The notes beneath the pieces were generated by a model. It saw only the letters and a list, made by a program, of their open reading frames with translations. It did no database searches and had not been told where the DNA came from. Below are positions 3,630 to 16,657 of a stretch of DNA of 64,000 nt, in pieces. The translations under genes were made by a program, and so were the position numbers. The first letter of the stretch is position 1; the number at the start of each line of letters is the position of its first letter. Source of the DNA: Candidatus Hydrogenedentota bacterium (GTDB lineage Bacteria; Hydrogenedentota; Hydrogenedentia; Hydrogenedentales; JAJRTN01); assembly GCA_024278275.1 (NCBI GenBank), contig JAJRTN010000123.1, positions 508 to 64,507 of the forward strand. The letters run 5' to 3'.

Positions 3630-3842
3630 GGAGCAGCCTCCTTCTTTCCACCGTCGCGATACAACCCCCGTGCCGACAATCATGGACTGTATTGTCCATT
3701 ATCACGCCCCCCATCTGTCAACCGTTATGGGTGGTTGACTTGGGAGGAGCTATCATGGATAATAATGTCTGTAATTTGCTTAATGGAGGACGCTTGCGCG
3801 TTCTGTTCGCCGGGTTGCTTCGTCGAACAGGATTGAACAGAT

Positions 3843-3943
3843 GTCTCCGAGCCCTCGCGGTCTAAAAGGCGCCGCCTCATGACCCGTGGGCCGGTCAGGG
3901 TACGGTTGGAAACGCCCGTGCCTCCCGTGTTTGGAAAGGAGAC
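3843..3943 (+). promoter_or_regulatory. candidate molybdenum-cofactor (Moco) riboswitch in the moaA leader
   Basis: gtCTCCGAGCC at 3843-3853 and GGAAAGGAGac at 3933-3943 resemble, from memory, the conserved 5' and 3' elements of the Moco RNA motif. gtctcc(3843-3848) pairs perfectly with ggagac(3938-3943) as a closing P1 that sequesters an AAGGAG Shine-Dalgarno. It sits directly upstream of moaA-moaC-moaB. Confidence 0.55.
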
Positions 3944-4014
3944 CCCGAAATGACTCGCCCACGTCTGGCGTGGCCCCCCGGGGCCGCGTGCATGTTTTTG
4001 GCCGCCCCCCGGCC

Positions 4015-6562: not shown

Positions 6563-8068
6563 TTATGGCCCGCCCAAATAACCACCGGGAAAGCGCCGGT
6601 AGATCTCGCTTGACATCTCGCGGACGTGGCGGGTGAATTTCCGTGCGGTGATGTAATGCCACCGCTCACCCGCGCAGGGCGGACGGAATATCATAAGGTG
6701 GAAGCCCCGGTCGAAGAGCCAGGCGTCCCAAGCGTCCCGAACCGCGCGGAGGGCGGTGGCGTTGAGTTTCCCGGGGCCGTAACGCAGCAGCAAAGTGCCT
6801 CCCGTTTTCAATGCGCCGAAGGCCCATGCGAGTACATTCTCCATTGCGTCATCCACGGCCTCCCCCATGGACCACACGACGGCATCCACCGGCCGCAAGA
6901 GGTGCGGTGCAATGGGCCATCGGTGCATTACATCATAGGACCGGGCGCGCCGCTTTGCCCAAGCCTCGTCGGGCGCCACGGCGATGATCGTTTCGATGCC
7001 CATCCGGTGCAGGGCAATCCTGGATTGGCCCATGTTCGCGCCCACGTCAATCATGGTGCGAACGCCGTGGGGCAAGTAGGCCGACGGACGGTCGCCCTCG
7101 CGCAACAAGGGTCCCGCCTCGAACCGGCCGCGATCCGTCAACACCGTCTTGAGCAGGGTTTCCACGCGGTGGCGGTAGGTGTGCTTCGCCAGGACCTCGG
7201 CCCGCGCCGCCGCGCCGATACGCCGCCGTGCTTCACCATCGGCCAGGTAGCGCCGCGCCTGTTCGATGAGATCCCCGTCGTCATAGGTGATGAGGTGTCG
7301 CCCCTCCTCGAAGAGCTCAAACAGGCCGTTAACCTCGGCATCCCGGTTGGTCAACAGGGGCCGCCCCATGGCCATGACCTCGAAGACACGCATATTCACG
7401 TCCTGCGCGATGGAACTGTTGAAGGCCAGCCTGCCGCGGCAAAAAGCGCGGCGCATGTCCTCCGGCCCCGCACCGGTCTGTTTGGCCACGCGGAAGTGCT
7501 TCCCCAACCGCCCCAGCCGCTGTATCCGCTGCTCGTTCACTTTCATCCGCAACGTGCCCACGAAGACAATGTCGAACGCTTCCTCGACCGCCTCGGGATG
7601 ATGGTGAGCGGGCGAACAGGCCAAAGGCAGCCACCGCGCGTGGCGGCAGCCCCCGTCGTGGAGATAGGGCACCAGCGCCCGTTGCGCCGCGAAAACGTAG
7701 TCGTAGTTCCGCGCCACCTGGAATTCGCGCGGGTCGTGCCAGGTATCCACGGAGATGTAGGCCGTCGGACAGGCCATGTCGTGAATGTTGCGATAAGCCG
7801 GCGCGGCCGACTGAATACCCACGACGAGGTCGGGCTGCCAACCCTTGGGTAGAAGCGCAAGCGCCTCCCGGGCGTCGTCCGTTTCGGTCACGAAATCATT
7901 GGGCTGCCGATACATGGCGGCATGGCCCAGGCCCGCTTCTTCCAGGAACCCCCGGTCCAGCCCGGGACCGACAGTGACCACCTCGCAGCACTGACGGAAG
8001 GCGTCCACGTAAAAAGGAACCCAATGGAGGACGTTCTCCCGGCAGAGGATGCAAACCCGCGGTGTCAT
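6563..8068 (-). CDS. CgeB-like glycosyltransferase fused to an FkbM-like methyltransferase-type C-terminal domain
   Basis: The central part (FDIVFVGT...FNSSIAQDVNMRVFEVMAMGRPLLTN...GRHLITYDD..LIEQARRYLADGEARRRIG) resembles CgeB/Glyco_trans_1_2-type glycosyltransferases. The C-terminus has MIDVGANMGQS, which is FkbM-like. I chose the ATG at 8068 (MTPRVCILC...). The longest ORF starts at 8131 and would overlap the upstream gene. Confidence 0.6.
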   Translation of the reverse strand: MTPRVCILCRENVLHWVPFYVDAFRQCCEVVTVGPGLDRGFLEEAGLGHAAMYRQPNDFVTETDDAREALALLPKGWQPDLVVGIQSAAPAYRNIHDMACPTAYISVDTWHDPREFQVARNYDYVFAAQRALVPYLHDGGCRHARWLPLACSPAHHHPEAVEEAFDIVFVGTLRMKVNEQRIQRLGRLGKHFRVAKQTGAGPEDMRRAFCRGRLAFNSSIAQDVNMRVFEVMAMGRPLLTNRDAEVNGLFELFEEGRHLITYDDGDLIEQARRYLADGEARRRIGAAARAEVLAKHTYRHRVETLLKTVLTDRGRFEAGPLLREGDRPSAYLPHGVRTMIDVGANMGQSRIALHRMGIETIIAVAPDEAWAKRRARSYDVMHRWPIAPHLLRPVDAVVWSMGEAVDDAMENVLAWAFGALKTGGTLLLRYGPGKLNATALRAVRDAWDAWLFDRGFHLMIFRPPCAGERWHYITARKFTRHVREMSSEIYRRFPGGYLGGP

Positions 8069-8076
8069 ATCACCCG

Positions 8077-9024
8077 TCAATCGTCCTTCGTCCAGATCAC
8101 GCGCTCGATAAGCGGGAGATAGTCCGACCATTTCTGACCACGCTCGCGGGTCTCCTCGACAATCCGCGAGATGGCGGCCGCCTGGGCGTCCAGGTTGTCG
8201 ATATGGTGCAGCACGATGGCCTCCAGGGTCTTGGGCACCACGGGTGAACCGAACTGCAATTCCCCATGGTGCGAGAGGATGAGGTGGAGGAGTTGCACGC
8301 GGATCTTTTCGGGAAAGCCCTCGATAGTGTTCATTTTTTCGATGGCCATGTCGGCCCCGATCTGGAGATGGCCGATAAGCTTGCCTTCCGTGGTATAGTC
8401 CACGTGAAGGTCATGGGTCATTTCGCTGAGCTTACCCAGGTCATGGAGCAGGATGCCCGCCAGGAGAACGTCCCGGTCGAGGGCCGGGTAAAGCTCGCAC
8501 ATGGTCTGCGCGATGCGGGCCATTTCATAGCAATGGCGCACCAGGCCGCCCCGATGTTCATGGTGCCACTTCTTCGCCGCGGCCGCATGGGTGAATCGGC
8601 TGACAAAATCAGCGTCCGCCATGAACTTATCCACCAACTGCCTGATATGGGGTTCCTCGATGGTGTCCAGGATCTCGCGGAAGCCGTCCAGGTGTTCCCG
8701 CGTGTCCTCCGGCGTGAAAACGAGGTCCTCCGTGTCGTACTCGCCCTCGCGCAGGGGCACCACCTGGTCCACCACCACCTGGTTGCGCCCCTGGTAGACC
8801 GACACCCGGCCGCGCACGCTCACCACGTCGCCCACCTCGAAGCGCTTCGAGGTCTGCACGGCGTTGTTCCACATGATGCCGCCCACCTCGCCGGTGCGGT
8901 CCTTGAACACCATGCCCAGGAACTTGCCCCCGTCCTGCTTGGTGCGCAGGTCGTTACGCGTGGCCACGAAGACATCATTCACAATGTCCCCTTCCTGAAG
9001 GGTGTTCACATACTGGTTTTTCAT
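8077..9024 (-). CDS. YhaM-like 3'-5' exoribonuclease (OB-fold plus HD domain)
   Basis: An N-terminal OB-fold (DVFVATRNDLRTKQDGGKFLGMVFKDRTGEV...VSVRGRVSVYQGRNQ) is followed by an HD domain (HHEHRGGLVRHC...LLHDLGK). Confidence 0.8.
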   Translation of the reverse strand: MKNQYVNTLQEGDIVNDVFVATRNDLRTKQDGGKFLGMVFKDRTGEVGGIMWNNAVQTSKRFEVGDVVSVRGRVSVYQGRNQVVVDQVVPLREGEYDTEDLVFTPEDTREHLDGFREILDTIEEPHIRQLVDKFMADADFVSRFTHAAAAKKWHHEHRGGLVRHCYEMARIAQTMCELYPALDRDVLLAGILLHDLGKLSEMTHDLHVDYTTEGKLIGHLQIGADMAIEKMNTIEGFPEKIRVQLLHLILSHHGELQFGSPVVPKTLEAIVLHHIDNLDAQAAAISRIVEETRERGQKWSDYLPLIERVIWTKDD

Positions 9025-9129
9025 GGAATACTCCGATGTGTTAAGCGGGCGGACCCGCGCGGATGACCTTTGAAATCGTCTTCGTCACAGCCTATCCCGA
9101 AGGCGAGGGGAGGCGCAAGTCCCGGGGCC

Positions 9130-9512
9130 GGGTCTGTTTGTCCGTAAGGGTTTGTGGCAAGCGTTGACAGGGGTCTGTATGGGCCGGGTATTGAGCCGCG
9201 AAAGACGCGAATCCCTGGAGTGCCGACGGCTTGGGACGGTTCGGAAGGCAACATTGGACCCCTCGGTATTGCAAGAGGCGTTCAGGCTCCACGTGATCAC
9301 AGACCCCATGGGCGTTCGGAAGTTTCTTGCACGGAAGCCGGGAGATCCCGCAGTTGGCCTTGACCTGTTGTCAAGGTCCGCGTGGTCAGAATGAAATACA
9401 ACCACGATAAACGACAGTGGTCCGACAAACCCATAGTACCGCAGAAGCGCGCGAACAAAGAGCAGGGGAGACACTGCCCGGCGGAGCGCGTGGAGGGAAG
9501 AGGCACTATCTA
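9130..9512 (+). mobile_element. possible 3'-truncated group II intron relic (structured RNA plus the first ~40 codons of an intron-encoded-protein-like ORF)
   Basis: This roughly 250-nt non-coding stretch has long-range pairings, for example gggtctgt at about 9172 with acagaccc at about 9298, and GAAA-type loops (gagccgcGAAAgacgc). It is followed by an ORF fragment, ...SDKPIVPQKRANKEQGRHCPAERVEGRG. That fragment resembles, from memory, the Lys/Asn-rich N-termini of many bacterial group II intron reverse transcriptases (..IVxxKxxNKxGxxxAExxExRG..). No GUGYG 5' end, RT domain or domain V/VI is present, and the segment stops where a repeat element begins at 9516. Confidence 0.3.
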
Positions 9513-9515
9513 TAC

Positions 9516-9695
9516 CCCAATGTTGCATAAAGGTACCGGCCAGCCGTTGGTATCCCCAAGAACCGCCATCCCCGCGAACGCGGGAATCCACGGGAAAGGT
9601 CAAGGTGTTGCCCCTATCATGGATCCCCGTTTTCGCGGGAATGACGGTTGGTTGTGGCACGGACGGCGGTAGCGATTCTTGGTTCCGGTTCGGCC
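9516..9695. repeat. composite REP/MITE-like element (family A unit with conserved left and right flanks)
   Basis: 9516-9564 (ccaatgttgcataaaggtacc...ccccaagaacc) matches 32805-32851. The core unit at 9565-9647 has inverted arms. The right flank at 9647-9695 (ggttggttgtggcacggacggcggtagcgattc..) recurs at 48166-48210 and, inverted, at 54431-54480. Confidence 0.8.
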
Positions 9696-9711
9696 GGGGT
9701 AGGAGGCCATC

Positions 9712-11223
9712 ATGATCATTATTGGAAAGGACGTTTCGAGGGGAGGTGGGGACACGTTGGAGCGAGTCTCCGCGAAGCCGCGTGTGTGGGTAGCGGACCG
9801 TTTTTTATCGGAGGAGGAGACGGAGGCCCTGCTTGTCCAAGTGTCGGCGCGGGAAAGCGAATCCGCAAGCAAACTGGAGGCGAGGGAGGATCAAGCCGGT
9901 TTCAGTTTTGAATGGCTTATCGACGGGAACCTGCTATTGGAAACTATTCGTGAAAAGGTGACTAACATCCTGGGACTGGAAAACCAGTTGCCCGAGACCT
10001 TCCGCGTCCGCCATTACCGGCCCGGCAACGGGCATCCGCCTCATCTTGATTGCTATGAGATAGACGGCTACTCCCTGGTCTTTACAGCGCTCATGTATTT
10101 AGAGGACGCGACCGAGGGAGGCGAGACGCTTTTTCCGGAGACGGAGGAAGGGCCCTTCGCGGTCGCGTCGCGACTGGGCCGTCTGGTTGTGTGGTGCAAT
10201 TATCTTCCGGACGGGCGGCCCGACCCGCGATCCAGTCACGAGGGCATGCGCCTCGCGCGGGGTAGCAAGACAACCTTGGCGTGGTTCGTATACGCGCCGC
10301 TCTCGGCGGCGACGCACACCCCGGGAAGGGGTTGTTTCACGGAGAAAGCGCCCGGTCTCGGCGGGCGTCTTTTCTATATCGATGATGGGGTGCCCGAGGA
10401 GACAACGGAGGTGATGGAAAAGGCGTGCGGCGCGCGGGGAGTGCATTTTGCCTATGTTGATGTCCGCCAGTTTGATTTTTCCGCGGCCTCTCCCCTCCTG
10501 CCGGGCGATATGATCTACCGCGCGGCGGTCAGCGCCGATGCCATCAAAGCGGAGCAGCATCTCTTTGTGGACGGTGTCGCTACGCTCTACCGGAAACCGG
10601 AAGGCGTCTTCTTCGACACCGGTGCGGCGTGGGCGCTGTTTGAACGCGCCGGGGTGCCTACCCCGCGCGCCGTGTATTGTCATACCTCGGACCGCGCAAG
10701 ACTACGAGGCTACGCGGAATACTTGGGGGGATTCCCCCTGATTGCCAAGTTTGCGGGGGGCTCCGGGGGGGTAAATGTCGTGCTCATCGAATCGCTGCAA
10801 GGGTTGTTTTCGCTCATGGACCATGCCCACTATAACGGTCGCACGCCCTACTTGACGGCTTATGTCCCCGATGCGGAGCATTGGCGTATGGTCGTTGTGG
10901 GCGACTCGGTCGTCGCGGCCTATCGGAACCAGACGCAGACAGACGATTTTAGAACCTACGACGCGGAACGCGCCGAGGACTATCTTTTCCCTAAGGATCC
11001 CGCAATGGCCGCGTCCGCCGTGGCCGCGGTGCAGGTGCTGCAAGTCGAACTGGGCGGGGTGGATATTCTTCTGCACCCGAGTGGCCGACATTATGTGCTT
11101 GAGGCAAACTTTCCCTGTTACTTCGCCACGGCCCAACTCACGGGAGGTTTCGATATCGCCGGCGCGATAGTCAAGTTGCTGCGGAAAAAGGCGACCCGCC
11201 TTGCGGGGGCGGGCACGCCGTAA
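9712..11223 (+). CDS. fusion protein: prolyl 4-hydroxylase-type 2OG/Fe(II) oxygenase (N-terminal) and RimK-type ATP-grasp ligase (C-terminal)
   Basis: AGGAGG at 9701-9706 lies 5 nt before the ATG. The N-terminal roughly 200 aa carry HPPHLDCY (HxD), GGETLFPE, and SSHEG..GSKTTLAWFV. The C-terminal roughly 290 aa carry FPLIAKFAGGSGGVNVVLIE, HWRMVVVGDSVVAAYRN, and GGVDILLHPSGRHYVLEANFPCYF. Confidence 0.8.
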   Translation: MIIIGKDVSRGGGDTLERVSAKPRVWVADRFLSEEETEALLVQVSARESESASKLEAREDQAGFSFEWLIDGNLLLETIREKVTNILGLENQLPETFRVRHYRPGNGHPPHLDCYEIDGYSLVFTALMYLEDATEGGETLFPETEEGPFAVASRLGRLVVWCNYLPDGRPDPRSSHEGMRLARGSKTTLAWFVYAPLSAATHTPGRGCFTEKAPGLGGRLFYIDDGVPEETTEVMEKACGARGVHFAYVDVRQFDFSAASPLLPGDMIYRAAVSADAIKAEQHLFVDGVATLYRKPEGVFFDTGAAWALFERAGVPTPRAVYCHTSDRARLRGYAEYLGGFPLIAKFAGGSGGVNVVLIESLQGLFSLMDHAHYNGRTPYLTAYVPDAEHWRMVVVGDSVVAAYRNQTQTDDFRTYDAERAEDYLFPKDPAMAASAVAAVQVLQVELGGVDILLHPSGRHYVLEANFPCYFATAQLTGGFDIAGAIVKLLRKKATRLAGAGTP

Positions 11224-11268: not shown

Positions 11269-12102
11269 CTACTTGCGAGTCTGCTCAGAGGCGGAACCAC
11301 CGCGGCGACCCGCGCGCGCAGTCTCGCTCACGTTCGTCTTCTTGGCCCTCTCCTCACTGCCTCGCGCCTGGACGGCCTTTTCCTTCGCTTCCCCGGCGCG
11401 TTTCTTGGCTACCGTGAACAGCTTATTCTCCTGCTCCGAAAGCCGCCGTGCTTCTTGAAGCGCCTTTTCAGCCCCCTTTACCTGCTCCTCCGCATCCTTG
11501 GTCTTGTACCTCTTGTGCTCTTTCTCCGCGGCGCGCACATCGCGCCCGGAACTACGCACGGCACGTTTGGCTTCTTGCCAATCCTGGCGTGTTAGCTTCA
11601 CTTTCTCTTCGGCATTGCGCCACGTAAGCTTGGCCTTATCCTCCGAGGCACGCAAATCGCGCCTCACCTGCTTCACTCCCTCCTCCGCGTCGCGAACGTT
11701 CTTGCTGTGCTCCTCGCCCGTGCGTGCCAAATCCTTCGCCTGCGCAAAGGCTGATACCGTAGGCGCCATCACCGCGTACGCGGCGGCGGCCCCGGCAAGC
11801 CGCATCATGTCGCGACGAGTGGCATGGTTGCTGCCCGCGGGAGGCGTAACGCGGCTTTCAAGCATGCCCGCATCGGCAAGACGGTCGAGCGACAGAAACA
11901 CCGTTTCACGCGTTGCGGAAGCATCTACGTCGCGACGAACGACGTCAACAATTGCGTCGATGTCATTCGTGCCGTCGGCAGCCAGCAACACAGCGGCGTC
12001 GGTTCCCTCCAGGCCAATTGTTTGGTCAGAACGCAGGTTTACGCCCAGTCCTTTACCATGGCGCCGCAAGGTGATTTTCGCATAGCGAATTGGATTCTTC
12101 AT
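11269..12102 (-). CDS. hypothetical protein: PqqD-like N-terminal domain, internal twin-arginine/hydrophobic segment, Lys/Glu-rich repeat tail
   Basis: AGGAGA lies 9 nt before the ATG at 12102. Residues 20-85 (..LEGTDAAVLLAADGTNDIDAIVDVVRRDV..RETVFLSLDRLADAGMLE) resemble the PqqD/RRE fold pattern. TRRDMMRLAGAAAAYAVMAPTVSAFAQ follows at about residue 95. The last roughly 160 aa are charged repeats (..DAEEGVKQV..NAEEKVKLT..DAEEQVKGAEK..). Confidence 0.6.
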   Translation of the reverse strand: MKNPIRYAKITLRRHGKGLGVNLRSDQTIGLEGTDAAVLLAADGTNDIDAIVDVVRRDVDASATRETVFLSLDRLADAGMLESRVTPPAGSNHATRRDMMRLAGAAAAYAVMAPTVSAFAQAKDLARTGEEHSKNVRDAEEGVKQVRRDLRASEDKAKLTWRNAEEKVKLTRQDWQEAKRAVRSSGRDVRAAEKEHKRYKTKDAEEQVKGAEKALQEARRLSEQENKLFTVAKKRAGEAKEKAVQARGSEERAKKTNVSETARAGRRGGSASEQTRK

Positions 12103-12415: not shown

Positions 12416-13234
12416 TCATGCCTTCAGGCCGCCCTCGGACAGGCCCCTGATGAAGTACTTCATGCCCGCGAGAAGCAGCAGCGTCAGCGGCAGGGAGCCG
12501 ATGGCGTAGGCAGCGAAGGTCAGGCCGTATTCGGAGCGGTACACCGTGGAGAGATCGAAAATGGCCACGGCGAAGGTTTTCAGATGCTGATTCTGAAGGA
12601 CCATGAGGGGCCAGACGAAATCGTTATAGATGCCGTGGAAGTTGATGATGGCGACGACCGTCAGGATCGGCAGCGAGAGGGGTAAGACAATCCGGCGGTA
12701 GATGGTGAATTCGCCGGCCCCGTCGAGCCGGGCACTCTCGAAGTAGTCCTCGGGAATGGTGGAAAAGAATCCGCGGCAGAGAAGGATTCCCACGATTTGG
12801 CCTTGCGCGATGTAGGGCAGGATCAGCGCCCAGTAGGAATCGAGGAGCCCGAGCTGCTTGACCTCGACAAAGAGGGGCACCAGCAACAACACTTGTGGAA
12901 CCATGACCAGCGCCAGCAGCATGATGAACAGGAGCTCACGCCCCGGGAAGCGGTGTCGCGCGAAAACGAACCCGGAAAGGGAACTGACAAAGACAATCCC
13001 CCCGCAACTGACCACGGCGACGAAAAGGCTGCTCAGGATACTCCAATGGATCGTGGCAAAGGCTTCGGTGTAATTACTCCACTGGATCCGCGTGGGTGGT
13101 CGCCAGAAGGACGTAATGATCTCTAGGTTGCTCTTGAGGGAAAGAAACAACATGAGCGCCACCGGCAGAAGACTCAATGCCAGCAGAAGGAAGAGCACCG
13201 CCCTGGCCCACCAGACATGGTTCTGTTTACGCAT
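12416..13234 (-). CDS. carbohydrate ABC transporter permease (MalG-like)
   Basis: Six-TM profile with an EAA-like loop (ESARLDGAGEFTIYRRIVLPLS). The ATG at 13234 overlaps the upstream stop (ATGA). The longest ORF, starting at 13366, is unlikely. Confidence 0.85.
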   Translation of the reverse strand: MRKQNHVWWARAVLFLLLALSLLPVALMLFLSLKSNLEIITSFWRPPTRIQWSNYTEAFATIHWSILSSLFVAVVSCGGIVFVSSLSGFVFARHRFPGRELLFIMLLALVMVPQVLLLVPLFVEVKQLGLLDSYWALILPYIAQGQIVGILLCRGFFSTIPEDYFESARLDGAGEFTIYRRIVLPLSLPILTVVAIINFHGIYNDFVWPLMVLQNQHLKTFAVAIFDLSTVYRSEYGLTFAAYAIGSLPLTLLLLAGMKYFIRGLSEGGLKA

Positions 13235-14121
13235 CACGATTCCATGTCGCTCCTCAGCAGACGAAAGATAAGCAGGCTGCCCAGGAGTATCGTCACGAAG
13301 AGGGCGAGACCGATGGCGGAAGCATAGCCAAAGCGGGAAACCTGGAAAGTCTGCTCGTACATCCACAGGCCGGGTACATAGGTGGCAAAACCGGGACCGC
13401 CGCTGGTCATCACCAGTATTCGACCGAAATCCTGGAGACTGGCGATCAGGGTCAACACGGTGACCAGCCGGAACTGGGGGATAAGCATGGGCATTTCAAC
13501 GCGCCAAAGCCGTGAAAGCGGCGTGGCGCCGTCAAGGGAGGCCGAATCCAGAACGTCCTTGGGCAGGTCGTTGAATCCCGCCAGAAAAATGAGGAAGGAA
13601 AGTCCCGTGACCCACGGAAAACCCATGGCGATGATGGAACCCAGCGCCACGCCGGGATCGCCCAGCCACGGGCGCTTCGCGCCTTCGAGCCCCACGGCAT
13701 CCAGGGTCTGGTTGAGCAGGCCCAGGTTGGGATCGTAGATGAAGTACCACATGAGGACAAGAACCATGGTGGGCGTGATGATGGGCAGGACAAAAGCGGT
13801 ACGCAGCCAGTAGCGCTCGCGTTCGGAACGAAGGTGATAGATCAGGGCGGCCACGGTGAAGGGGAAGATCATCGCCTTGAGCAGGTCCGTCAGAAAGAGA
13901 ATCGCCTGGTTTACCACGCCGTGCCGGATGAAAAGGTCGGTCGCCATTTCCGCGAAATTGGCCAGGCCCACGAAGCGCGACGCGCCCACGGCCTGCCACC
14001 GGGTGAAGGCGTGGTAAATGCCCGACAACGCGGGGTAGTAGAGGAACAGTCCCGCCAGGGCAAAGCTGGGGATCAGGAGAAAGTAGGAGCCACGCGCCTT
14101 GACGATGCGCCGCCACATCAT
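13234..14121 (-). CDS. carbohydrate ABC transporter permease (MalF-like)
   Basis: Multi-TM protein with DSASLDGATPLSRLWRVEMPMLIP (EAA loop). Its start overlaps the stop of the solute-binding-protein gene (ATGA at 14118-14121). Confidence 0.85.
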   Translation of the reverse strand: MMWRRIVKARGSYFLLIPSFALAGLFLYYPALSGIYHAFTRWQAVGASRFVGLANFAEMATDLFIRHGVVNQAILFLTDLLKAMIFPFTVAALIYHLRSERERYWLRTAFVLPIITPTMVLVLMWYFIYDPNLGLLNQTLDAVGLEGAKRPWLGDPGVALGSIIAMGFPWVTGLSFLIFLAGFNDLPKDVLDSASLDGATPLSRLWRVEMPMLIPQFRLVTVLTLIASLQDFGRILVMTSGGPGFATYVPGLWMYEQTFQVSRFGYASAIGLALFVTILLGSLLIFRLLRSDMES

Positions 14122-15647
14122 TTCACGTGGTCCTCCGTGGTGGGGTCCAGGTCGTAGCCGCGACGCGCGATGATCTTTCTGACCAGACGCAGGGTCAACG
14201 CCTGCTTCTTACGCAGGAATGCCTTGGGCGTCATCCGGCCCAGCGCGAGCAATTGACTGTAAGGACGGATGCGAAGGGCGGTGTCGCTGTCGTTGGGGTC
14301 GGGCAGCAGGTCGCCCTTAATGTAGCCGCGCCTGCCGAAGCCTTCGAGCTTCTCCGCGAGTTCGGGGGGCAGTTTCACCCCTTTGATCATCGGCGCGCCC
14401 TGAATGAACTCACCCACTTCGAGCGTCCGCCGGGTCAGGTAGGCGGCCTGTTCGGGGGCATAGAGAAACATGAGGAAATCCATGACGCGCCGGTGTTGCT
14501 CTTCGTCGCCTTTATCGACGACGCTCAGTTGGTGGCCCGCGCCGCCGATGCCCCGCATGGGCGCCAGGCCATGGACACTTCCTTTGATCGAAGGGACCGG
14601 AAAGACTCCCCAGTCGAAGCGTTGGTCCGGGGGAAGTTCGGTCATGTCCCGCATCGGGCTGCCGATGCGCCAGCTTCCGATAAGCCACATGGCCGCCTTG
14701 CCGGTAATGAAGAGATTGTACGCCCCGGTCTGATCGGTTCCCAGGTGGCCGAATTCATAGTATTGCGTCAACTCCTGCAAGTGCGTGTAGGCTTCCACGA
14801 AGACAGGCTGTTCATAGCTCATCCGGCCATCGAGAAAGGCCTTCATGAGCCGCTCGGGATTGATGGTAATCAACTGGTCGGCGTACGGATCGTCGAGGTT
14901 GCCTCCGTAGCCCGCGTTGGCGGGGACATAATTCCAATCCCCCGGCCGGGCAATGACATCGGGGATGAAACGCCGCAGGCAGGCATCCTCGAGCATCCCC
15001 ACTATCCAGGCCGCCATGTCGGTGTTCGCCGCGCCGGGCACGGACACCGGCGTAACGCCGCCGTCGTGGAAGACCTTGCAGACGGTGATCCATTCCGCCC
15101 AGCTCTTGGGTGGGACAACCCCAAAACGTTCAAACAAGTCCTTGTTATAGAAAATACCCACGGCGACATAATCCAGGGGAAGGATGCAGTAATGGATCCC
15201 ATCGACGGCAAGACTGTTGAGAAAGACCGGGTCGAACAGGCTTTCCCAGGTCACGCCGCCCGCATAGGGGTTGGGTTCACGCAGATACGCGTTGCACGCC
15301 AGAAAGCGGCCCGCGTGGTAGTTCTCGGAGACGCCCAGGATGTTGCCATGCACGATGTCCGGCGCGTCGCGCCGTCCCGCGGCCATCTGTGCCGTGTAAT
15401 AACGTTTCAGGCTGAGATTGTCGGGTTGCAGGTTGATCTCGACGGTCACATCGGGATGCAACCCCATGTATTGCTTCGCCAACTCCTCCAGCGCGGTGGT
15501 GTAAAAACCTTTTACCGTGGAGATAAGGACCCGGCCGCCCGCGCCCGCATTGTCCATGGAGGCCAGCCATCCCAGGAGGAACAGAAGGACGATCACGCAC
15601 GGCGCACGGGGATGTCCCCCCCGGCGCCCATCGGGCGCGCCCGTCAC
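14118..15647 (-). CDS. ABC transporter extracellular solute-binding protein (family 1, sugar-type)
   Basis: About 500 aa with a signal-like N-terminus (..RRGGHPRAPCVIVLLFLLGWLAS) and typical SBP_bac_1 composition. I prefer the GTG at 15647 because it forms a GTGA overlap with the stop of the upstream gene. The longest ORF starts at 15731. Confidence 0.75.
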   Translation of the reverse strand: MTGAPDGRRGGHPRAPCVIVLLFLLGWLASMDNAGAGGRVLISTVKGFYTTALEELAKQYMGLHPDVTVEINLQPDNLSLKRYYTAQMAAGRRDAPDIVHGNILGVSENYHAGRFLACNAYLREPNPYAGGVTWESLFDPVFLNSLAVDGIHYCILPLDYVAVGIFYNKDLFERFGVVPPKSWAEWITVCKVFHDGGVTPVSVPGAANTDMAAWIVGMLEDACLRRFIPDVIARPGDWNYVPANAGYGGNLDDPYADQLITINPERLMKAFLDGRMSYEQPVFVEAYTHLQELTQYYEFGHLGTDQTGAYNLFITGKAAMWLIGSWRIGSPMRDMTELPPDQRFDWGVFPVPSIKGSVHGLAPMRGIGGAGHQLSVVDKGDEEQHRRVMDFLMFLYAPEQAAYLTRRTLEVGEFIQGAPMIKGVKLPPELAEKLEGFGRRGYIKGDLLPDPNDSDTALRIRPYSQLLALGRMTPKAFLRKKQALTLRLVRKIIARRGYDLDPTTEDHVK

Positions 15648-16657
15648 GAGAAAACGGCCTCCCAGCTTGCGTAGACCTGGCGGACGTTCCCGGGCTTCGC
15701 GCCGGGGCCGAACTCGCATTGGGCGATACACCCGCCGTTTTTCCAGAGCTTTTCATGAACTTCGCGCACGGCGGCGTCCACCTCCTCCAGGCTCGCCTCG
15801 GGCAGGATGTGCTGGCGATCCATCTCGCCCCAGAAGGTGATGCGCCCCGCGAATTCCGCCACCCGGTCGATGCCCATGCAGAAGATCTGCGAGTTGAAGG
15901 CGTCCAGTCCAAGCTCGATCAAATCCGGGTAGATGTCGAGGGTGTATCCGTCGGAGTGCATGAAGATCTTCTTGCCCGCCCCGTGGGCGATCTGGATGTA
16001 GTCCCGGTACAGGGGTTTGAACGTTTCGCGCCACACGGCGGGACTGATCAGCAGGCTTTGCTGCGTCCCCCAATCGTCCATGAACATAACGGCGTCCACG
16101 TCGGTGGCCACCCACTTTTCCAGCAGGGCGCAATAGAAGGCGTGCATTTCCTTCACGAAGGCCGCCATGGACGGGGAAGGGTCCATGAGATCCATGTAGA
16201 GGTTCGCGGTTCCCCGCAGGAACTGGAGTTGTTCAAAAGGCCGGGGACAACAGCCCGCCATGATGAACTTGTCGGATTCGGCGCAGGCCCGGTTGACGCG
16301 GCCGGGATCGATGGTGAGCCATTCCCGCGGGATATGCACCTTGGCCGTATCATTTTCCCAGTCCTTGATAAGGGGATCCTTCACCTCGCCAATGACACCG
16401 GCCTGCAAGTTGGTGAACACCGACCCCCACTCGTCCACGAAGGTGCCCACGCCATGGGGATCGCCCTCGGTTTTCGGCGTCTCGGCCAGGAAACCCGGCA
16501 CACCGCCGATATCATCGGGGAAACGTTCCTGGATCTCCCTGAGTTCCCGCTCGTGATGCAAGGTTGCCCAGGGCAGATGCCACAATTGCCGCGGCGCCCG
16601 GGCCGGGTTCTCGAAGTTCAAGGTCTGCAAGACCAATTCACGGGAAGTTGCGGCCAC
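15644..16657 (-). CDS. uroporphyrinogen decarboxylase (URO-D) superfamily protein, MtaA/CmuA-like, not HemE
   Basis: About 337 aa with the URO-D/methyltransferase-like TIM-barrel pattern (..IMAGCCPRPFEQLQFLRGTANLYMDL..VDAVMFMDDWGTQQSLLISP..IFMHSDGYT..). The GTG at 16657 is preceded by AAGGAGGA (complement of about 16664-16671). The longest ORF starts at 16870. Confidence 0.7.
   Translation of the reverse strand: MAATSRELVLQTLNFENPARAPRQLWHLPWATLHHERELREIQERFPDDIGGVPGFLAETPKTEGDPHGVGTFVDEWGSVFTNLQAGVIGEVKDPLIKDWENDTAKVHIPREWLTIDPGRVNRACAESDKFIMAGCCPRPFEQLQFLRGTANLYMDLMDPSPSMAAFVKEMHAFYCALLEKWVATDVDAVMFMDDWGTQQSLLISPAVWRETFKPLYRDYIQIAHGAGKKIFMHSDGYTLDIYPDLIELGLDAFNSQIFCMGIDRVAEFAGRITFWGEMDRQHILPEASLEEVDAAVREVHEKLWKNGGCIAQCEFGPGAKPGNVRQVYASWEAVFS

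Follow-up and report, generated by a model that had tools for sequence, protein, structure and literature searches.

What is the substrate of a bacterial polypeptide that begins as a prolyl 4-hydroxylase (P4H)-type oxygenase and ends as a RimK-type ATP-grasp ligase, and do both halves act on the same molecule? The question is raised by a gene at 9712..11223 (+) of a 64,000-nucleotide stretch of contig JAJRTN010000123.1 from a Candidatus Hydrogenedentota bacterium (assembly GCA_024278275.1); the whole of this stretch is referred to here as the window. We have found that the fusion gene has a convergent partner at 11269..12102 (-), the stop codon of which lies 45 bp from the fusion stop. The 277-aa product of the partner gene is built of an N-terminal domain with the fold of a RiPP recognition element (RRE; RiPP, a peptide made on the ribosome and modified after translation), an internal twin-arginine translocation (Tat) signal and a predicted helical tail rich in E-x-x-x-K (ExxxK) pentads. 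We establish here the identities of the domains, the intactness of the catalytic residues, the linkage of the two genes, the RRE fold, the pattern of the Tat signal and the residue specificity of the motif. The two convergent genes are hypothesized to form a protein-modification module of the graspetide type, which is the best explanation of the whole and to which we assign a probability of about 0.5. The action of an ATP-grasp enzyme and an oxygenase of Pfam family PF13640 on repeated i/i+4 motifs is itself already known from the corallotide system of Corallococcus exercitus, CorA/CorB/CorC(/CorD), which constitutes graspetide group 15 (Carter et al., ACS Chem Biol 2026, PMC13097080).

The fused oxygenase and ligase

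The fusion gene is a single uninterrupted reading frame across 9712-11223 (+) that encodes 503 aa from an ATG start, with a Shine-Dalgarno AGGAGG, read from the sequence, at 9701..9706 (+), 5 nt 5' of the ATG. No signal peptide was found in the fusion protein, and the enzyme is predicted to be cytoplasmic. It consists of a P4H-type 2-oxoglutarate (2OG)/Fe(II) oxygenase domain (residues ~18-198; 9763..10305, +), an inter-domain linker (residues ~199-218; 10306..10365, +) and a RimK/LysX-type ATP-grasp ligase, its pre-ATP-grasp N-subdomain included (residues ~219-500; 10366..11211, +). The linker varies in length across the family (alignment columns ~235-290) and is conserved among close orthologs. 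An AlphaFold2 model of the fusion had a mean pLDDT of 93.1, falling to 81 in the linker, and a pTM of 0.68; the combination of this pTM with a pLDDT of 93 suggests that the relative orientation of the two domains is uncertain. A sequence-only reading of the same DNA had described a continuous frame behind a strong AGGAGG, containing a P4H core and a RimK-type ATP-grasp core in an architecture that it did not recognize as characterized. Each of these statements is upheld by the searches reported below, and no characterized member of the fused oxygenase/ATP-grasp architecture was found in the literature; no literature was found combining ATP-grasp, prolyl 4-hydroxylase and RiPP.

The Pfam model 2OG-FeII_Oxy_3 (PF13640) matches residues 98-193 marginally, with 27.8 bits (E 4.9e-6) for the N-terminal half alone and 25.5 bits for the full protein against a cut-off of 27, and many of the fusion orthologs have a precomputed match to the same model. 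When the protein was searched against the PDB using phmmer, the Chlamydomonas P4H (2jig; E 3e-9, residues 18-198), the Bacillus anthracis P4H and human C-P4H alpha-2 were matched; similarity to the Chlamydomonas and Bacillus structures ranged from E 3e-9 to 7e-7 over residues 18-198. The iron triad H111-x-D113...H176 is conserved in an alignment of 30 full-length homologs and is intact in 44-47 of 47 oxygenase domains of the family, while the 2OG-binding K186, located +10 from H176, is K or R in 47/47. In the AlphaFold2 model, residues 96-195 form a beta-rich core. On these residues and matches, the oxygenase domain looks catalytically intact.

In the ligase half, Pfam RimK (PF08443) matches residues 308-489 at E 5e-13, scoring 49.5 bits where the cut-off is 21, and the RimK structures 5zct and 4iwx match residues 308-496 at E ~2e-14. 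The key ATP-grasp residues, namely K346, the Gly-rich loop 349-354 (GGSGGV), the D412-F-R414 motif and the Mg ligands D451 and E464-x-N466, are conserved in the same 30 homologs, and from its sequence this half also looks complete and catalytically intact. In Foldseek comparisons of the C-terminal half, the whole of ArgX (3vpb), RimK (5zct, ~0.79) and LysX (3vpd) were matched with a TM of ~0.8 relative to the target over ~290 columns, and the graspetide synthetase PsnB ranked next (TM 0.66). All of these closest structural relatives activate a carboxylate borne on a protein or peptide. None of the curated subfamily models was reached: the protein scored 77.7 bits against a cut-off of 143.4 for rimK_fam (TIGR00768), 53.2 against 331 for the RimK S6-glutamate ligase equivalog (NF007764), 58 against 276 for LysX and, among the graspetide models (TIGR04187, TIGR04184, TIGR04185), 24 against 350 for TIGR04187, 16.7 against 475 for MvdD and 12.1 against 425 for MvdC. 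In RimK, the segment that follows the DFR motif, with its Asn and Gly-Gly, is associated with binding of the incoming amino acid. This segment, SNLHRGG in RimK, is replaced by TYDAERA in the window protein and is not conserved in the family.

About 45 full-length homologs of the fusion protein were found. An exhaustive HMMER search placed the enzyme family in 523 clusters (50% identity) at E <=1e-30, and its loci span at least nine phyla in a patchy, laterally scattered distribution that is atypical for a housekeeping modifier. In a locus survey for which one genome per species was scanned, 85 non-redundant loci were collected. Both domains occupy one ORF at 39 of the 85, including loci on finished chromosomes (those of Polyangium aurulentum and Candidatus Lustribacter are complete and bear the fusion architecture). 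The sequence-only reading had allowed for an assembly join between about 10300 and 10400, and split versions of both genes are indeed known in other genomes, as an assembly or frameshift artefact uniting two separate genes would lead one to expect. This explanation was rejected, and its probability is negligible, given that the same single ORF recurs at 39 independent loci, that the linker is kept in close orthologs and that the model is confident over the junction.

The oxygenase-then-ligase order of the window is that of the 39 loci, and the reverse order, ligase-then-oxygenase, was found in P0128, P0131 and P0137 (all Pfam-confirmed) and in a Viridibacterium locus (L056). A stand-alone ligase occupies 46/85 loci. 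These homologs, of ~285 aa, are ~50% identical to the C-terminal half of the fusion and start at its ligase domain boundary; a separate 2OG-FeII_Oxy_3 gene adjoins the stand-alone ligase in two of three cases examined, and at 38 of the 46 loci no oxygenase lies within 5 kb. Split genes together with fusions in both orders are classic evidence of partnership, and here they point to a physical and functional association of oxygenase and ligase. Such a Rosetta-stone pattern backs the view that both activities act on one substrate. Other architectures were also observed, in which two tandem RimK-type ATP-grasp domains (564-570 aa) or, in a protein of 745 aa, two oxygenase domains occur (P0226, P0266, P0237).

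The convergent partner and its ExxxK tail

The partner gene is preceded by AGGAGA 8 nt 5' of its ATG, and its product has no Pfam annotation. It abuts the fusion stop in the window and at the first three ortholog loci, and the four products align. A hidden Markov model of the partner N-domain found a match within 5 kb of the enzyme at 58/85 loci; nine further loci have an adjacent ExxxK-rich ORF that is without the N-domain or is cut off by a contig end, which brings the total to 67/85. The ~285-aa stand-alone ligases adjoin the same neighbor. ExxxK-rich ORFs numbered 54 among the 4,084 ORFs within 2.5 kb of the enzyme, as against 2 among 3,366 farther off, and the partner is by a wide margin the most ExxxK-rich ORF of the window. 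No conserved gene besides the partner emerged from all-vs-all clustering of neighboring ORFs; a third gene kept beside the enzyme, whether CorD-like beta-lactamase, protease or transporter, was sought and not found. The sequence-only reading had held that the fusion gene stands alone; this is true for its own strand and does not extend to the convergent neighbor, which is conserved. The same reading had advised checking whether orthologous fusions keep their neighbor, which over all loci, fused and stand-alone, is conserved at 67/85; its naming of the neighbor's tail as a candidate substrate was a sound pointer.

The linkage is not uniform in its details. Some Planctomycetota partners have neither RRE domain nor Tat signal, and at a Bradymonadia fusion locus there are two partners, both with the Tat signal and without the RRE. 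The ligase and the ExxxK array thus make up the invariant core, and the RRE, the Tat signal and the oxygenase are common add-ons that are dispensable in some lineages. At a locus of a Myxococcota metagenome-assembled genome (MAG), three tandem partner paralogs (L076, 3449-9304), each with RRE, Tat signal and tail, have a stand-alone ligase and a second fused enzyme at their flanks; a C-terminal domain that is not repetitive (...GTEGEFAAVG...) is common to the ends of their tails. A group of stand-alone ligases from Anaerolineae/Chloroflexota (L051, L060, L063, L066, L068) has conserved neighbors of its own, and no RRE partner, ExxxK-rich ORF or oxygenase was found within 5 kb of them; the substrate of these ligases may be different or encoded elsewhere.

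The N-terminal domain of the partner (residues 1-85; 11848..12102, -) has the PqqD/RRE fold. A profile of the partner family matched the PqqD structures 5sxy and 3g2b at E ~2e-4, PF05402 (PqqD) matched 17/32 partners and the ApyI RiPP-binding model 10/32. The window partner by itself did not reach E 0.1 against PF05402, and a single-sequence search of its residues 1-125 against a large protein database returned no match. An alignment query of the N-domain returned mainly Thalassolituus-type relatives, as a result of a word index effect. Residues 1-85 were modeled with a pLDDT of 86-91 as three strands followed by three helices (beta10-15, beta18-23, beta27-30, alpha33-41, alpha48-58, alpha65-77), and Foldseek matched this model to the leader-bound RREs of TbiB1, lasso B1, ThcOx, LynD/TruD and PbtF with a probability of 1.0 and a TM of 0.65 relative to the target.

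Between the RRE domain and the Tat signal lies the motif R84-V-T-P87-P88 (11839..11853, -). R84, P87 and P88 are invariant in 32 partner sequences, in which R-x-x-P-P stands 6-12 residues before the twin arginines. The internal twin-arginine signal follows (residues 94-122; 11737..11823, -) and reads T-R96-R97-D-M-M-R-L, with an Ala-rich h-region and AFA/AQA. R96 and R97 are also invariant in the 32 partners, and the family pattern is [ST]RRx[FLM][LM] with an Ala/Gly/Leu-rich h-region and AxA; some partners match TIGR01409 (E 2e-4) or formate_TAT (E 3e-5). No literature was found combining PqqD, ATP-grasp and twin-arginine. Two distant relatives share the RRE and the RR-hydrophobic segment and have tails of another kind, Thr/Pro-rich in P0094 and Cys-rich in P0122, which suggests that the scaffold of leader domain and export signal is modular and reused for other modified proteins.

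The tail (residues 123-277; 11272..11736, -) is predicted to be helical, is free of Pro and contains 11 E-x-x-x-K pentads, with Glu at positions 130, 140, 154, 165, 193, 205, 223, 238, 250, 251 and 273; the protein ends with the last of these pentads, EQTRK. It was modeled as two long helices (133-185 and 189-266) at a pLDDT of ~80-85. Motif frequencies were counted in 50 tails (9,789 aa) and compared with composition-preserving shuffles, the z-scores being inflated by tandem duplication. E-x3-K was observed 4.4x as often as in the shuffles (z 43), E-[QES]-x2-K 9.5x (z 53) and EQxxK 16x (z 55). The ratio was 1.36x (z 4.4) for the reversed K-x3-E, and for the neighboring spacings it was 1.26x (E-x2-K, z 3.5) and 0.85x (E-x4-K, z -2.0). 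The patterns with Asp in place of Glu or Arg in place of Lys were depleted, at 0.56x for D-x3-K (z -3.6) and 0.55x for E-x3-R (z -5.1). The depletion of Arg and Asp points to a reaction that requires the carboxylate of a Glu and the amine of a Lys at a distance of four residues, and the pattern as a whole fits a carboxylate and an amine paired at fixed spacing, as the reaction of an ATP-grasp enzyme would use them.

The motif recurs across phyla with wholly different spacers, for example as QEQKQK, REQHTK and AQESxxK in one MAG each of Gemmataceae, Caulobacterales and Acidimicrobiales, respectively, and as ESEAKK in Polyangium. The minimal repeats, in L007 and L087, have one Glu and one Lys each, and the terminal copy usually lies 0-6 residues from the C-terminus of the partner. 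Lactams of the type K(i)-D(i+4) have been reported to be the best helix inducers, and the K(i)-E(i+4) and D(i)-K(i+4) types to be unsuited to helices (PMC9285742). The two helix-unsuited patterns, K-x3-E and D-x3-K, are those that are not enriched in the partner tails. E(i)-K(i+4) lactams are helix-compatible as well, and the KxxxD of corallotide and the ExxxK of the partners would both be in a helix-compatible orientation. In one clade, made up of Myxococcota MAGs and others otherwise labeled (L015, L017, L018, L019, L023, L024, L026), the mature tails open with a conserved Cys-containing acidic segment, C-G-D/E-D-K-x-L-I-D/E-E-I-A-W/Y-L-E-A, ahead of the ExxxK region.

Several further features were noted around the gene pair. 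A GC-rich hairpin with a T-run at 11194-11214 (-), inside the 3' end of the fusion gene and 55 nt past the partner stop, could terminate the partner transcript; it is not significant, and a promoter/terminator scan around the two genes gave results at chance level. The 687-bp gap upstream of the fusion gene holds a full-model Rfam match to group-II-D1D4-6 at 9087-9306 (+), with 93.7 bits against a gathering score of 49. Neither a domain 5/6 match nor an intron-encoded protein was found nearby, and the match therefore has the look of an orphaned group II intron 5' fragment. An inverted repeat at 9541-9670, whose units take the form CCCCGCGAACGCGGGAAT / CCCCGTTTTCGCGGGAATGA, resembles REP-like palindromic elements and was the source of spurious weak miRNA-model matches on both strands. 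Farther upstream are a 522-aa glycosyltransferase-family protein (6563-8131, -) and a protein with an OB-fold and an HD domain (8077-9024, -), which we take to be a YhaM-like architecture; neither is conserved beside the fusion at other loci. A Moco (molybdenum/tungsten cofactor) riboswitch aptamer was identified at 3833-3957 (+), with 80 bits against a gathering score of 36. Downstream of the partner, at 12416-15731 (-), two BPD_transp_1 permeases and an SBP_bac_1 binding protein are encoded in an ABC uptake operon of the sugar type, unrelated to the module.

Candidate pathway and rival explanations

We propose that the RRE-fold domain of the partner serves as a built-in recognition handle on which the cytoplasmic enzyme would dock. 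The ATP-grasp half would then phosphorylate the gamma-carboxylate of each motif Glu to an acyl phosphate, and attack by the epsilon-amine of the Lys at +4 would close a 21-membered side-chain lactam, in effect an i to i+4 staple of the helix. The oxygenase half would subsequently hydroxylate the cross-linked unit, most likely on the Lys side chain by analogy with CorC, and as in the case of CorC it may also activate the ligase. The cross-linked helical product would be exported by the Tat system through the internal twin-arginine signal; this route is proposed because such a product cannot be threaded unfolded. Signal peptidase would finally cut at AxA, predictably behind AFA120 or AQA122, releasing the modified tail and removing the leader made up of the RRE and the signal. 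The parts of this pathway differ in strength. The partner is very probably the substrate of the enzyme, as its linkage and its motif suggest. Provided that it is, a Glu-Lys lactam is the probable product; provided that the lactam is formed, hydroxylation within the ring is favored somewhat less firmly, and export by Tat with cleavage is favored to about that same degree.

A number of observations weigh against this proposal. Its weakest part is the target of the oxygenase, since 38 of the 46 stand-alone-ligase loci are without an oxygenase within 5 kb and the tails have no distinguishing feature: no convincing tail feature was found to track the presence of an oxygenase, the ExxxK density being 5.7 and 5.6 per 100 aa. 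The curated graspetide synthetases are more distant from the ligase than are RimK, LysX and ArgX, whose reaction attaches a free amino acid to a carboxylate on a protein. An RRE on the substrate instead of the enzyme is unorthodox. The Tat signal of the window partner reached only E 0.06 against Pfam TAT_signal and is atypical in placement, as it is not N-terminal and follows a folded domain of ~90 residues. At 18/85 loci there is no partner within 5 kb; some of these contigs are truncated, but those of the Anaerolineae group are not. CorA is not homologous to the partner (BLASTP E >0.2). Lastly, the E-to-K(i+4) spacing is also favored by salt bridges in charged single alpha-helices, which leaves the depletion of Arg and Asp unexplained. 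A generic charged single alpha-helix was rejected as an account of the tails for this depletion at the paired positions, where such a helix would tolerate both residues, and on the evidence of Gln-/Ser-rich tails that keep exactly one Glu and one Lys per repeat.

The kinship of the ligase with RimK, LysX and ArgX, its best matches in both sequence and structure, speaks for a different reaction, in which free amino acids such as glutamate would be added, in the manner of RimK, TTLL or LysX, either to the motif Glu, at its gamma-carboxylate, or to the partner's C-terminus, with the Lys at +4 used for recognition only and the oxygenase tailoring the result. The last pentad, 0-6 residues from the C-terminus in most partners, would suit such a reaction as well. 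We nevertheless consider it unlikely, as the amino-acid-binding segment SNLHRGG of RimK has given way to the non-conserved TYDAERA, partner C-termini are not Glu-rich, and recognition alone does not explain the strictness of Lys (Arg at 0.55x), the exact i+4 spacing and the repeats of one Glu and one Lys (L007, L087). A housekeeping role, in which the fusion would hydroxylate and glutamylate a ribosomal protein such as S6, or EF-Tu, has the family names RimK and P4H and the ribosomal targets known for some relatives on its side, and the sequence-only reading had drawn attention to C-terminal glutamylation of S6 and to EF-Tu. It is not supported: rpsF, rimA/rimB, lysW and ribosomal neighbors are absent from all 85, the NCBIfam cut-offs are missed (the RimK equivalog at 53 against 331), SNLHRGG is replaced, and the enzyme is tightly linked to a repeat protein and has a patchy, laterally scattered distribution. 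We regard this role as very improbable.

True prolyl 4-hydroxylation of P87/P88 before the Tat signal, by which export might, for example, be controlled in response to oxygen, with the ligase acting separately on the tail, is to be given about as small a chance as the addition of free amino acids. The closest solved relatives of the oxygenase are prolyl 4-hydroxylases, R-x-x-P-P is invariant and close ahead of RR, and the tail of the window partner has no proline. Against this, PP is equally invariant where the locus has no oxygenase (L037, L045), and fusion enzymes with an intact triad are paired with partners that lack both the RRE and the PP segment (L032, L016), an argument for the tail, and against the PP motif, as the site of oxygenase action; CorC, also of PF13640, hydroxylates Lys and not Pro. 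Given these pairings and the Pro-free tail of the window, prolyl hydroxylation by the oxygenase half is doubtful. The RRE domain could alternatively be taken at face value, as RREs normally belong to the enzyme side and bind a separate leader peptide; the partner would then be a membrane-anchored RRE scaffold or regulator, and the enzyme would modify some other peptide or make a small molecule, such as a hydroxylated dipeptide. The differing tails of P0094 and P0122 would agree with this. No other conserved neighbor or small ORF was found to serve as such a substrate, however, the ExxxK array is kept beside the ligase in lineages that have lost the RRE, and the motif is as specific in its residues as a site of reaction should be, so that we judge a scaffold to be less probable still than prolyl hydroxylation. 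Cross-linking of the partner's own tail thus remains the explanation that we prefer.

A bolder generalization may be put forward tentatively, and we think it rather less likely than the proposal for this locus: that the partners represent a widespread and hitherto unsurveyed class of ribosomal, Tat-exported 'naturally stapled helices' of 150-660 aa with up to ~30 Glu(i)-Lys(i+4) lactams, optionally hydroxylated, in which the substrate-borne RRE is a cis-acting leader removed by signal peptidase. Perhaps the RRE would also act as a chaperone with a proofreading role, retaining the Tat signal until all modification has taken place. The products, if the proposal is true, could be structural polymers of the surface or periplasm, or fibres resistant to mechanical or proteolytic stress, and the ExxxK motif together with the RimK-clade ligase would provide a new handle for genome mining.

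Comparison with known systems

The oxygenase half resembles the P4Hc enzymes Chlamydomonas P4H-1 (2jig) and B. anthracis P4H (5iax) in its double-stranded beta-helix core, its HxD...H triad and the Lys at +10 from the distal His. It differs from them in being fused to a ligase and in the absence of Pro from its predicted substrate tail. The ligase half has RimK and LysX/ArgX, the latter being ligases of amino-group carrier proteins, as its best sequence and structure matches and, like them, would act on a carboxylate carried on a protein; unlike them, it is linked to an ExxxK repeat protein as its putative substrate and has no SNLHRGG segment. With the graspetide synthetases MdnB/MdnC and PsnB it shares the ATP-grasp fold, an adjoining (here putative) ribosomal precursor in which donor (Lys/Thr/Ser) and acceptor (Asp/Glu) residues recur at a fixed spacing and, as predicted here from sequence, the formation of side-chain macrolactams. 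Graspetide ligases bind a linear leader directly, whereas the putative substrates of the present family have a folded RRE domain; these substrates are proteins of 150-660 aa with up to ~30 sites, and their proposed export is by a Tat signal instead of a peptidase-containing ABC transporter. The known RREs (PqqD, lasso B1, LynD, ThcOx, PbtF), to which residues 1-85 of the partner are similar in fold and sequence profile, are separate proteins or enzyme domains that bind a leader, whereas in the partner the RRE-like domain belongs to the presumed precursor itself, ahead of a Tat signal.

Of the known systems, corallotide comes closest, and its logic parallels that of the module strikingly. The 22-kDa precursor CorA is bound by the enzymes through its N-terminal 86 residues and has five KxxxD motifs C-terminally; CorB, an ATP-grasp enzyme of TIGR04187, makes a Lys(i)-Asp(i+4) isopeptide, after which the PF13640 oxygenase CorC hydroxylates C-delta of the cyclized Lys (PMC13097080). 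CorB and CorC co-purify, CorC activates CorB, and CorD, a protein with a beta-lactamase fold, is dispensable (PMC13097080). An ATP-grasp ligase and a PF13640 oxygenase are thus joined in both systems, by a complex in Corallococcus and by covalent fusion here, from which we infer a complex. In both, the precursor, putative in the case of the window, is unusually large, with a ~86-residue recognition domain at its N-terminus ahead of the repeated sites, and a Lys is paired at each site with an acidic residue at a distance of exactly four positions. A PF00144 gene, like CorD, was observed convergent to the stand-alone ligase in a Caulobacterales MAG (L007 6869-8101, -, and L008); a CorD-like PF00144 neighbor was seen only at L007/L008 and is not conserved across loci.

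The precursor, the model scores of the ligase, CorD and the phylogenetic range nevertheless set the module apart from that family. Motif polarity and acid are E-x3-K here and K-x3-D in CorA, and pattern counts gave 8 KxxxD and no ExxxK in CorA as against 11 ExxxK in the window partner. The N-domain of CorA is all-helical, there is no Tat signal and the core is Pro/Gly-rich, whereas the partner has an RRE fold, a Tat signal and a Pro-free helix. The window ligase, being nearer to RimK/LysX, falls far short of TIGR04187, the model to which CorB belongs. Over the first 133 residues of CorB and of CorC, the portion compared, no similarity to the fusion protein was seen, and the two enzymes may nonetheless be orthologous to its domains. 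Group 15 has been reported from Corallococcus only, in 18 clusters (PMC13097080), as compared with the 523 clusters in at least nine phyla found here. The present family also seems to lie outside the published census of >20,000 graspetides, in the co-occurrence tables of which PF13640 appears in two groups only and PF08443 and PF05402 in none (PMC13097080).

The partnership of an ATP-grasp enzyme with a PF13640 oxygenase is accordingly not new in itself, and the coupled hydroxylation and ligation of one substrate that the sequence-only reading had drawn from the fusion is no longer without precedent (PMC13097080), even as the coupling gains support from the Rosetta-stone pattern and the CorB-CorC complex. 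The present system is set apart by the fusion of its enzymes, a ligase of the RimK clade, the reversed motif running from Glu to Lys, an RRE carried on the presumed substrate, a Tat signal that is internal and a wide range across phyla. If the proposal is true, chemistry of the graspetide type would extend from short peptides to whole exported proteins and, for this pairing of enzymes, from one genus to at least nine phyla; a counterpart in nature would exist for the synthetic i to i+4 lactam staple; an RRE would act from the substrate side of a pathway; and cross-linking in the cytoplasm would be tied to Tat, the export route for pre-folded cargo. The fusion of the two enzymes in both orders would, in turn, lend independent support to the ligase-oxygenase complex published for corallotide.

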